Positions 42,143-43,975 of a stretch of DNA of 64,000 nucleotides are shown here, piece by piece. The number at the start of each line of letters is the position of its first letter. Position 1 is the stretch's first letter. This DNA comes from an uncultured Clostridia bacterium (GTDB lineage: Bacteria > Bacillota > Clostridia > Saccharofermentanales > Saccharofermentanaceae). The position numbers and the translations under genes were made by a program. The stretch lies in contig CAMYXL010000001.1 of the NCBI GenBank assembly GCA_947303255.1, forward strand, positions 18,231-82,230, in the 5' to 3' direction. The notes under the pieces were generated by a model. It saw nothing but the letters and a program-made list of their open reading frames with translations. It had not been told where the DNA came from and searched no databases.

Positions 42143-43657
42143 TCAGCCTACTTTTTCTGCGCTGACTATGGTGCCTCTGTCTATTACTGCACCTTCATCA
42201 AATTCAGCAATGATAGTGTACAAAGAATCCTGGTAGAAAGCGAATCTCACAGTACAATCCTCATATTCGTACACGTAATAAGCATAATCATCACTTATCT
42301 CCGGCGTAGTATCTGCTCCTGCGTTAGCAACTAAGTCTTCAGGTGTCATAGTGAGAGGGAACTCAAATTCGATCCCATCTTCCCATGCATCGATATAATC
42401 AGAATTGAAACAGACACCGCATACTACGCAGTCAATAATGGTTCCGTCTGTTTCTGCTCTTGCGATAAAGAATATCGGACAACTCCAATTCTTTCCTTCA
42501 GGACGATCCGTTTCTTCGTCCATATCAAACACGTTTAAGACCACCACATCTCCGGTCTCTACCGGATCATCAAGCTGGTTGTCATAAGCAAAGTCTCTGT
42601 CCAGCATGTATGCACCTACATAGCATCCGGTATCAACAAGATCCTGAACGGTGGAATTATTCATGGTGATAACATCTCCGTTGACCTTTACTTTCATGTC
42701 GTCGAAGTTGACATAATTCCTGCCGTCAGCACCAAAATCAAAATCTGTTCCGACTCTGTCCAGATTTCCTCCAGCTTCGTTGGATTTCGTTTTTGACTCA
42801 TCATCAGGATCGATCTCAGAGATCTCGTTTCCTGCATTCTTTTTGATATTCTCTTTCGAAAGAGGATCCTCATCTTTGTGTGTAGCGTAATAAACAATAC
42901 CTGTTGTGGCGGCGCCTGCAAGTACGATTGCGGCAATAGTAATAATGATCTTTTTCATGGCAAATTCTGTCCCTTTCGTTATTGCTTTGGAAGCAAGTTT
43001 TGAACCGGCTGCTTTTGTTGCAGCCTTAGTTGTTGATGCGGACAGATTTGAAAGTGAAGACGGCATTGGCTTAAAAGGCACCTGCTCGGCTTCTTTTGTA
43101 AATAGTTTCGTTAAGAATGGTACGACCATATAAAGTTTTGTGTCGTTGTCTTTTTCATATTTTTCGACCTCCTTCTTGATTTTTTTCTTGGCAGAATTAA
43201 TGCGCCACGATACTGTTCCTTCAGGAATATTGAGAGCTTTAGCGATCTCTTTGGTACTCATCTCGTCAAAGTAAAACAGGATGAGTGTCCTACGGATATC
43301 TTCAGACAAAGAATTGTTGATGATATCCATGATGATCTTGCGCATCTCGGCAGACTCGATTATTGAGTCAGGCAGGAAATCCTCGGGAACAGTCTCGACT
43401 GTGTCAAAGAACTCGTCATCAACGTTATCCGTTTTCGTTCTGGTAATACGATTCAGGGATTTGTTGGCTGCGACCTTTTTAAGCCATGGCAGAGTCTTAC
43501 TCTTATCCTTAATGCTGTCGTATGAGTTAAACAGAGAGATAAAAGTGTCCTGTACGATGTCCTGTGCATCATCTTCATTTTTCAGAAGAGAAAATGCTGT
43601 CCAGTACACCGCGCGATAGGCTTCGTTATAGATCTTTTCCAGTTCTTTGTCGGTCAT
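42143..43657 (-). CDS. ECF sigma factor fused to a TM helix and an acidic extracytoplasmic domain
   Basis: Sigma2 region (DAQDIVQDTF, LPWLKKVAANKSLN), sigma4 region (LFYFDEMSTKEIAKALNIPEGTVSWRIN), TM segment KKIIITIAAIVLAGAATTGIVYYA, and an Asp/Glu-rich C-terminal domain of about 240 aa. Start taken at ATG 43657 after GGAG. Confidence 0.88.
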   Translation of the reverse strand: MTDKELEKIYNEAYRAVYWTAFSLLKNEDDAQDIVQDTFISLFNSYDSIKDKSKTLPWLKKVAANKSLNRITRTKTDNVDDEFFDTVETVPEDFLPDSIIESAEMRKIIMDIINNSLSEDIRRTLILFYFDEMSTKEIAKALNIPEGTVSWRINSAKKKIKKEVEKYEKDNDTKLYMVVPFLTKLFTKEAEQVPFKPMPSSLSNLSASTTKAATKAAGSKLASKAITKGTEFAMKKIIITIAAIVLAGAATTGIVYYATHKDEDPLSKENIKKNAGNEISEIDPDDESKTKSNEAGGNLDRVGTDFDFGADGRNYVNFDDMKVKVNGDVITMNNSTVQDLVDTGCYVGAYMLDRDFAYDNQLDDPVETGDVVVLNVFDMDEETDRPEGKNWSCPIFFIARAETDGTIIDCVVCGVCFNSDYIDAWEDGIEFEFPLTMTPEDLVANAGADTTPEISDDYAYYVYEYEDCTVRFAFYQDSLYTIIAEFDEGAVIDRGTIVSAEKVG

Positions 43658-43975
43658 TTTTTCTGTCTCCTTTTTGTCCGCATCTACTCTATAGACACAT
43701 GACAAAAGAGATTTCTTGGGTGGTTCGAAAAAATTTTTACTCTTGGATTTTATCATCATTGCCGGAGCGTTGTCTAAACATATGTGGAAACGCGTTGCTG
43801 TTGCGAGCTTAGAAAGTGATCCGTAAGGCTTTAAATATCAAGGATATTTTGGTGAATATTGTCATTATATTGATTATAATGTGGGCAATTTCAGAAAGTT
43901 TTTTCGAGCAAATGAAACAAAAGGCATACCATTATCTGTCTATGATGAGTATCTAAAACGTATGAGGAGAAAACT

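Follow-up and report, generated by a model that had tools for sequence, protein, structure and literature searches.

The 64,000-nt stretch analysed here, referred to below as the window, comes from an uncultured bacterium of the family Saccharofermentanaceae, class Clostridia (assembly GCA_947303255.1, contig CAMYXL010000001.1, positions 18,231 to 82,230), and carries on its minus strand the gene of a 504-residue protein, P0001. The list of open reading frames (ORFs) in the window contains an uninterrupted minus-strand frame from 43759 to 42143. We take the ATG at 43657 as the real start of P0001, because GGAG lies 10 nt upstream of it, the orthologues all begin at this position with MT[DE]KELE, and the longer ORF would add 34 codons that overlap with the promoter of the gene. 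The neighbouring genes are a convergent one for an RlmD-like methyltransferase and a divergent one for a membrane-anchored alpha/beta hydrolase; no anti-sigma gene adjoins P0001 among the neighbours inspected at the locus. The initial annotation had described a sigma factor, a linker, a transmembrane (TM) helix and an outer domain in one chain with no anti-sigma gene next to it, and the ORF, the domains and the locus agree with this description. The coding region is made up as follows.

42146–43657, minus strand: coding sequence (CDS) of the sigma-TM-ectodomain protein P0001, 504 residues; copies 98–100% identical occur in other metagenome-assembled genomes (MAGs).
42143–42145, minus strand: stop codon of P0001.
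43433–43630, minus strand: sigma region 2, residues 10–75 (Pfam PF04542, Sigma70_r2, E 9e-11; AlphaFold 2 (AF2) predicted local distance difference test (pLDDT) 85–92; Foldseek matches to sigma structures of the extracytoplasmic function (ECF) type).
43145–43351, minus strand: sigma region 4, residues 103–171 (Pfam PF08281/PF04545; AF2; covariation of the two residues after GTV with the -35 box).
43046–43144, minus strand: post-sigma4 cytoplasmic segment, residues 172–204 (alignments; ordinary synonymous variation; AF2 pLDDT 62–71).
42965–43033, minus strand: low-complexity Ser/Ala/Thr/Lys linker, residues 209–231, ending in K228-G229-T230 (alignments and sequence check).
42884–42958, minus strand: Met234-Lys-Lys and TM helix 237–258 (hydropathy scan; aligned on the signal peptide of lipoprotein P0122).
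42716–42883, minus strand: acidic, Lys-rich extracellular stalk, residues 259–314 (AF2 pLDDT <50, predicted disordered; variable in alignments).
42146–42715, minus strand: extracellular alpha/beta domain, residues 315–504 (AF2 pLDDT 80.5 and predicted template modelling score (pTM) 0.81 when modelled alone).

A search of 5.8 billion proteins recovered more than 660 protein clusters of 470–700 residues that share the P0001 architecture, all of them from rumen Clostridiales/Saccharofermentanaceae MAGs. The same continuous frame runs through these clusters and through ~140 genomic loci, and a frameshift or assembly artefact was rejected as the origin of the fusion. Naturally split versions with separate sigma and anti-sigma genes were likewise rejected: the three short copies (two in G044:C15, one in G059:C9) are broken, two of them frameshifted and one ended by a contig edge. 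Since these frameshifted or cut genes are the sole short copies, the fused form is the functional form.

Residues 1–171 make up a complete ECF sigma factor. As expected for an ECF (group 4) protein, P0001 has sigma2 and sigma4 and is without sigma3 or sigma1.1; its Pfam Sigma70_r4_2 match covers residues 115–160, and with 93 bits the protein passes the ECF model TIGR02937 (cut-off 42.9). The NCBIfam subfamily and equivalog models all stay below their thresholds for P0001, the best being TIGR02985 with 93.9 versus 126.4. The recognition helix of sigma4 reads P-E-G-T-V-S-W-R-I-N-S-A-K (residues 145–157). An AF2 model based on a 121-sequence alignment is confident for sigma2 (1–75) and sigma4 (103–171), low to moderate in confidence for residues 172–188 and without confidence for 189–314. 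Within the sigma4 part, codons K162-E163 (window ~43169–43174, minus strand) are AAG GAG in 36/36 and 35/35 sequences and form a perfect AAGGAG of the Shine-Dalgarno (SD) kind; no start codon is evident downstream of it.

Between sigma4 and the membrane lies a conserved cytoplasmic stretch. Alignments of the segment 172–204 show T173, P180, F181, L182, L185, E189 and E191 to be invariant, and residues 180–187 form an amphipathic helix. Synonymous-site analysis found that the silent sites of residues 172–200 vary normally, which means that this part is constrained as protein; the silent site of T173 is itself frozen, with ACG in 30 of 31 sequences. Further along, L205-S206-A207-S208, G229 and K236 are invariant in the family and K228 and T230 nearly so. 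The segment 172–204 is a candidate autoinhibitory or RNA polymerase (RNAP)-contact element and probably modulates activity, via autoinhibition or tail processing. The initial annotation had called P0001 a sigma/anti-sigma fusion, and this label lacks support: profiles find no known anti-sigma domain, residues 172–233 contain no Cys or His, and AF2 confidence is low to moderate over 172–188 and absent over 189–314. Extending the stretch to residues 172–236 brings in no Cys or His for a zinc-binding anti-sigma (ZAS) motif, and Pfam gives no zf-HC2 match. A four-helix class I anti-sigma domain of ~80–90 residues is not matched either, with ~35 conserved residues, two short predicted helices, low pLDDT and no profile match. 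To judge by its sequence, P0001 cannot be recognised as a sigma/anti-sigma fusion of the ECF52 or FecR kind.

The hydropathy scan identified MKKIIITIAAIVLAGAATTGIVYYA (residues 234–258, with Met234 at window 42958–42956) as the sole hydrophobic stretch of P0001, with the TM helix at residues 237–258. The helix contains a nearly invariant G253. An N-in/C-out topology is very likely and agrees with the positive-inside rule, as KGTEFAMKK precedes the helix and the acidic stalk stands behind it. The stalk, residues 259–314, is a candidate site-1 cleavage region. The acidic, Cys-containing outer domain of the initial annotation is confirmed as an acidic stalk followed by a folded domain with six Cys (residues 315–504), at most one of which recurs in relatives and none of which is invariant. 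The fold prediction proposed for this part gave a confident alpha/beta domain. Its best structural resemblance, a weak one, is to the DUF4309 lipoprotein YjgB (4ygt), for which Foldseek reached probabilities of 0.75–0.99 with a TM-score of just 0.31–0.40 and E values from 5e-3 to 9e-2, without a Pfam match.

An exhaustive HMMER search with the ectodomain over 1.84 billion (1.84e9) representatives returned 25 clusters, which are either sigma fusions of 500 residues or proteins of 200–280 residues with lipoprotein signal peptides. The closest relative is the lipoprotein P0122 (254 residues): residues 241–493 of P0001 align with residues 4–245 of P0122 at 47% identity (E 3e-76), the signal peptide falling on the TM helix. 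In three contigs the gene of P0122 immediately follows that of another sigma fusion, the ectodomain of which is of the same family. Contig C100 of the MAG that contains the window encodes two weaker relatives, lipoproteins in tandem. Judged by the P0122 alignment, the ectodomain is derived from a captured lipoprotein precursor. The lipoprotein relatives therefore place the C-terminal domain of P0001 outside the cell. The impression that MKKIIITIAAIV reads like the start of a separate membrane-anchored protein proved well founded, as the P0122 alignment extends over the TM helix; it resembles such a start because it formerly was one. In the metagenome contigs L098 and L099, P0122 adjoins genes for a NikA-like protein, a relaxase and a serine recombinase; there it lies at the edge of a mobilisable element, a possible route for the spread of sensor modules.

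Comparison of the family shows a constant cytoplasmic cassette joined to exchangeable ectodomains: residues 1–260 are 60–80% identical, and the C-terminal halves are unrelated or weakly related, some of them carrying BspA-type leucine-rich repeat domains. The MAG of the window (G000; 2.94 Mb, 94% complete, fragmented) has five full-length copies (on C1, C104, C62, C26 and a distant one of 773 residues on C6), as the paralog count suggested by the initial annotation revealed, together with two copies cut by contig ends (C101, C10), which makes 5–7 copies in this genome, and one decayed remnant. Within the same Genome Taxonomy Database (GTDB) family, 62 of 121 species genomes, in 2 of 8 genera, carry 1–6 copies; beyond this clade identity drops abruptly to ~30%, the level of generic ECFs. 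One relic of a sigma paralog (G000 C62:2185–2330) consists of the full family promoter and leader box, ~60 nt of sigma2 fragment (ILPWLKKVVANRSLNRL) and, after these, a terminator hairpin. A lipoprotein gene is found downstream of the relic, and the intact C62 paralog is 1.7 kb away.

Lipoprotein genes are frequent companions of the family. Among family genes with enough flank, 22 of 49 have a lipoprotein gene next downstream in the same orientation, as judged by the lipobox pattern, or 24 when two genes with an FGC lipobox, read by eye, are counted. The downstream lipoprotein detectably shares the sensor domain in 2 of 25 pairs (BLAST E<1e-3; one of the pairs has a looser lipobox), plus C101, L095 and L096; given this minority, a general rule of paralogy between the ectodomain and the neighbouring lipoprotein was rejected. 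L095 (G044:C15) and L096 (G059:C9) are frameshifted family genes, either pseudogenes or assembly errors, whose downstream lipoproteins carry the domain of the broken sensor, nearly identical in the case of L096.

Upstream of the start codon, two elements of the transcription signal were delineated.

43728–43738, minus strand: A5T6 tract upstream of the -35 box, at the position of an UP element and palindromic with its flanks (conserved in most loci; a putative function).
43692–43720, minus strand: ECF-type promoter, with the -35 box CCCAAG at 43720–43715, a 17-nt spacer and the -10 box TGTCTA at 43697–43692 (conserved upstream of every paralog and orthologue; top match of the position weight matrix (PWM) in the genome).

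The upstream regions of all copies share one layout: an A/T tract, C(C/G)AA(G/C/T)A, a 17-nt spacer, (T/C)GT(C/T)TA, ~7 nt, AGATGCGGA(C/T)A and GGAGG. The CCAAG-N17-TGTCTA before P0001 is kept in 38 loci and agrees computationally with the AAC-N16–17-CGT pattern of ECF promoters, which as a rule are autoregulated. The two sigma4 residues that follow G-T-V covary with the -35 box, in the pairs SW-CCAAG, SR-CGAAG, RR-CGAAC, LW-CCAAT and LS-CGAAT; base 5 of the box goes with the first of these residues and base 2 with the second, and each position varies independently of the other. Adjacent targets that are not sigma genes show the same matches. Because the -35 box covaries with the sigma4 residues of its own gene, we infer with confidence that each family protein reads its own promoter, in positive autoregulation, and that the paralog classes are partly orthogonal. 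The class of P0001 (SW/CCAAG) also holds the C104 and C62 paralogs, and since it is common to all three, cross-activation among them is strongly expected.

In a PWM scan of the MAG, the motif was found solely at the sigma paralogs, the remnant and two other genes, both of the LS/CGAAT class. One of these (C101:3157–4295) encodes a 357-residue lipoprotein with a YD/RHS-like repeat domain immediately downstream of the C101 paralog, and this domain matches the ectodomain of that paralog with 30% identity (E 1e-26); the other (C21:39168–41413) encodes a 726-residue secreted repeat protein. In other MAGs (L026, L027, L047), a matched promoter precedes lipoprotein genes just downstream of the sigma gene, and in L024 a matched family motif stands before an ORF that starts with MKKL and is ended by the contig edge. 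At L037:3262 and L040:3839 (both minus strand), a family promoter matched to the adjacent LW-class sigma precedes a divergent gene, the product of which is a membrane protein of 470–510 residues with a double CxxC zinc ribbon. In the MAG of the window, PWM and regular-expression scans gave no promoter match before the C100 lipoproteins or before the hydrolase gene divergent from P0001. The hydrolase had been proposed as a member of the regulon, a suggestion that the locus does not bear out, as its single strong match is the promoter of P0001 itself and there is no matching one on that side. About 20 nt upstream of the A/T tract lies TGATAAAAT (window 43747–43755, minus strand), a box of the extended -10 kind, and similar TGnTA(A/T)AAT boxes recur upstream of many family genes. 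It may be a second promoter, used by the housekeeping sigma for basal expression, the transcript of which would include a spacer arm able to pair with the leader box.

The leader box itself is one arm of a long-range RNA helix that reaches into the coding sequence.

43675–43685, minus strand: leader box AGAUGCGGACA, 5' arm of the helix (invariant in 38 loci; pairing statistics).
43035–43045, minus strand: CDS box CUGUCCGCAUC, codons 205–208 (LSAS), 3' arm (silent-site entropy, complementarity and folding).

The leader box, (A)GAUGCGGA(C/U)A (GAUGCGGAYA), stands directly after the -10 box, and the mRNA probably starts at or close to it (predicted start ~43684–43687). The box is the reverse complement of the invariant nucleotides of codons 205–208, CUG UCC GCA UC, 620 nt downstream. 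Codons 203–208 have the lowest silent-site entropy of the N-terminal half, 0.19–0.26 of expectation versus a median of 0.71. In 36 of 38 loci, 10–13 contiguous pairs are kept; both arms are altered in L047 (leader GGACA to GAAAA, CDS UGUCC to UUUUC), a compensatory change occurs at the helix flank in L029, pairing is kept by G.U in L024 and L033, and half of the sequences have U.G at one helix position. In an alignment of 36 sequences, 88% of cells pair, as against 21–46% in slid controls. Two-sided changes were seen at five pairs versus 1.3 ± 0.7 in shuffles (0 of 500 shuffles reached the observed five), and the covariation score of the helix lies above all shuffles. The ViennaRNA minimum free energy structure of the 725-nt 5' part holds the helix in 18 of 19 genes, mostly with a pair probability near 1.

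These comparisons establish a conserved pairing of 10–13 bp between the leader and codons 205–208. The silent-site freeze at LSAS is due to this helix, and the LSAS motif is therefore not to be read as a protease site. The loop closed by the helix contains the entire sigma-coding part together with the SD and the start codon. The helix would add a post-transcriptional layer. A local hairpin at the -10 box (window 43686–43712, minus strand) was considered as well and set aside: 78% of cells are paired, covariation does not exceed shuffles and RNAalifold predicts nothing. Its 5' arm resembles the CDS box. In many copies, CCGCATC-like bases in the promoter spacer and the leader box form inverted repeats on either side of the -10 box. 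An intragenic inverton formed by the leader/LSAS inverted repeats is unlikely, since no inverted junction was found in metagenome contigs; the first 120 control matches of this check included at least 28 normal alleles, and the ~140 genomic loci are all collinear. The G.U pattern, which in half of the sequences amounts to a mismatch in the repeat at the level of DNA, also favours RNA over an inverton.

Taken together, we favour a reading of P0001 as a single-chain transmembrane signalling protein, whose tethered ECF sigma factor is freed by regulated intramembrane proteolysis and drives its own promoter, and give it a probability of roughly 55%. The cytoplasmic sigma would be held at the membrane by the conserved stalk of ~65 residues and one TM helix, with the 190-residue ectodomain outside. 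At rest, by analogy with IutY, RsiV and RsiW, the tethered sigma would form no productive holoenzyme. Binding or loss of an extracellular ligand would expose the disordered acidic stalk (259–314) to a site-1 protease, upon which an M50 site-2 protease would cut the Gly-containing TM helix; the freed sigma would then activate its own promoter and, in many family members, the adjacent lipoprotein gene. Among one-chain proteins of this kind, IutY of Pseudomonas putida (ECF243), which is cleaved by Prc at site 1 and RseP at site 2 (PMC5411451), is the single one with such release demonstrated (PMC5411451, PMC8999054). By this analogy, intramembrane proteolysis would be the most economical mechanism of release, and it is plausible because the MAG has an M50 site-2 protease gene (G000 C6:29804–31051, 176 bits).

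Several points weigh against this interpretation. No ZAS, FecR or other known anti-sigma class is detectable in P0001 with Pfam and NCBIfam profiles, and AlphaFold places residues 172–231 without confident docking. Characterised relatives of the ectodomain are lacking: Pfam and PDB sequence searches gave no match and Foldseek none at E<1e-3. In the fragmented, 94%-complete MAG, PWM and regular-expression scans revealed no SW/CCAAG target for P0001 beyond the promoter of its own gene. Finally, Clp-type degradation from the new C-terminus would threaten a fused sigma unless it is stopped.

A different account of how the sigma is silenced would place the inhibitor within the chain itself. Residues 172–231 could constitute a minimal, unclassified cis-acting anti-sigma element that, like the short class II proteins CnrY and NepR, clamps sigma2 and sigma4; activation would then come from its removal or unfolding, and tethering would be secondary. 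The protein-level invariance of the residues from T173 to E191 (T173, P180, F181, L182, L185, E189 and E191) and the amphipathic helix at 180–187 suit this proposal, and Foldseek puts the sigma core beside sigma/anti-sigma complexes, CnrH-CnrY and RpoE-NepR among them, which reflects the sigma fold alone. However, pLDDT in the segment 172–204 is just 62–71 with no docking readable, no family HMM matches, and for the LSAS residues of the conserved block the explanation lies in the RNA. We regard a cis-acting inhibitor as unlikely.

It is also conceivable that the sigma works while tethered, without any proteolysis. The ~65-residue linker would allow recruitment of core RNAP to promoters near the membrane, and the ectodomain would tune activity by oligomerisation or conformation, following the logic of ToxR and CadC. 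Such a scheme would fit the lack of an anti-sigma domain in P0001, the long and conserved cytoplasmic stalk, and targets that are neighbouring genes for exported lipoproteins and would suit membrane-proximal transcription. However, IutY, the one studied hybrid, needs cleavage, and we know of no earlier case of a sigma that is active while bound to the membrane. Conformational signals would travel poorly through a single flexible TM helix and a disordered stalk, and the conserved helix-breaking Gly in the TM helix fits a site-2 protease substrate. Activity in the tethered state thus seems to us distinctly unlikely.

The internal Met of the initial annotation raised the further prospect of two products, the full fusion and a free TM-ectodomain starting at Met234, made via the internal AAAGGGACA box (42976–42968, minus strand; K228-G229-T230) or via mRNA processing at the leader/LSAS helix, and serving as decoy or sensor partner. 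Most members have Met at 233 or 234; K228 is AAA in 33/33 and T230 is ACA in 28/31 sequences of a family that otherwise prefers AAG; the part from Met234 on aligns end to end with a lipoprotein precursor, and from the 3' arm of the helix it is 26 codons downstream to Met234. We nonetheless consider a free product improbable and the claim weak, as the box lies 12 nt upstream of Met234, long spacing for an SD, silent-site constraint at codons 224–230 is unexceptional (ratio 0.54–0.59 versus a median of 0.71), Met is absent from the distant paralogs C101 and C6, and Met-Lys-Lys may be a relic of the captured signal peptide.

A broader and quite speculative extension, to which we would give little credence as a whole, combines several of these elements into plug-and-play sensors: whole lipoprotein precursors, together with their signal peptides, would be captured in frame on the sigma and stalk, the helix would gate expression, and tethered sigma and free decoy would be made in a regulated ratio. 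The helix, lying at the border of sigma and sensor, would there couple translation of the sigma to the fate of the mRNA; it would protect the 5' end, or would be a processing site that splits the sigma message from the Met234 TM-ectodomain message.

The architecture of P0001 has parallels in known systems. Like P0001, IutY combines an ECF sigma, a single TM helix and an extracytoplasmic domain at the C-terminus in one polypeptide, and neither comes with a separate gene for an anti-sigma factor. IutY has a FecR-type periplasmic domain, works with a TonB-dependent outer-membrane transducer and is a single gene of a Gram-negative organism, whereas P0001 shows no FecR match in Pfam or NCBIfam, has no receptor gene adjacent and belongs to Gram-positive-type Clostridia. 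In contrast to IutY, the P0001 family has a conserved 65-residue cytoplasmic stalk, exchangeable ectodomains and 1–6 paralogs per genome. The actinobacterial ECF52, ECF53 and ECF48 proteins (for example SCO4117 of Streptomyces coelicolor) are, like P0001, one-component, with a TM C-terminal extension and extracellular domains of the binding type, and proteolytic activation has been proposed for them (PMC5826349, PMC8999054). Their extensions comprise a zinc-finger (ZAS-like) start, Pro-rich regions and carbohydrate-binding or hydrolase domains; P0001 has no zinc finger or Pro-rich region, gives no Pfam match to such domains and contains neither Cys nor His from the end of sigma4 to the TM helix. 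The remark that TM-extended ECFs are best described in Actinobacteria was correct, yet the features of the ECF52/53 extensions are all missing from the P0001 family.

The SigI/RsgI systems of Clostridium thermocellum share with the P0001 family multiple paralogous sigma/sensor units in plant-fibre-degrading Clostridia, differing extracellular modules that resemble regulated surface proteins, and autoregulation with diverged promoter specificities (PMC10328401). However, SigI is not of the ECF type, and RsgI is a separate protein with an N-terminal anti-sigma and an autoproteolytic periplasmic domain (PMC10328401); no RsgI_N or SigI is among the top NCBIfam/Pfam matches of P0001, the best models for this single chain being ECF models. 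ECF57 proteins (formerly ECF01-Gob) of Planctomycetes and the Planctomycetes-Verrucomicrobia-Chlamydiae group also have a constant sigma-TM cassette, varied large ectodomains and many paralogs. They differ in phyla, ectodomains (WD40/beta-propeller and others) and stalks, and their sequence relation to the P0001 family is limited to the sigma core. The general design is thus already known from IutY, ECF48/52/53 and ECF57, and on sequence the family lacks the defining extension features of each. We found no description of it in the literature on Saccharofermentans sigma factors or on ECF fusions in Firmicutes. Three features are of broader interest: the origin by lipoprotein capture, a sigma4/-35 code that can be read off the sequences, and the conserved RNA helix between leader and CDS, which is newly observed here.

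Membrane-spanning ECFs of the one-component kind have been catalogued and hardly studied: the mechanism is shown for IutY, and the cases from Actinobacteria and Planctomycetes are predicted. The present family raises the questions of how a tethered sigma is silenced without an anti-sigma domain and how it is freed without being degraded, and it offers compact, orthogonal transmembrane sensor parts for synthetic biology. The code of two sigma4 residues and two -35 bases predicts the cross-talk among paralogs. Overall, the P0001 family extends the one-component design to Clostridia, in abundant fibre-degrading bacteria of the rumen, with hundreds of natural variants in which sensors have been swapped on one constant cytoplasmic cassette and with the capture of lipoprotein precursors as the evolutionary route.

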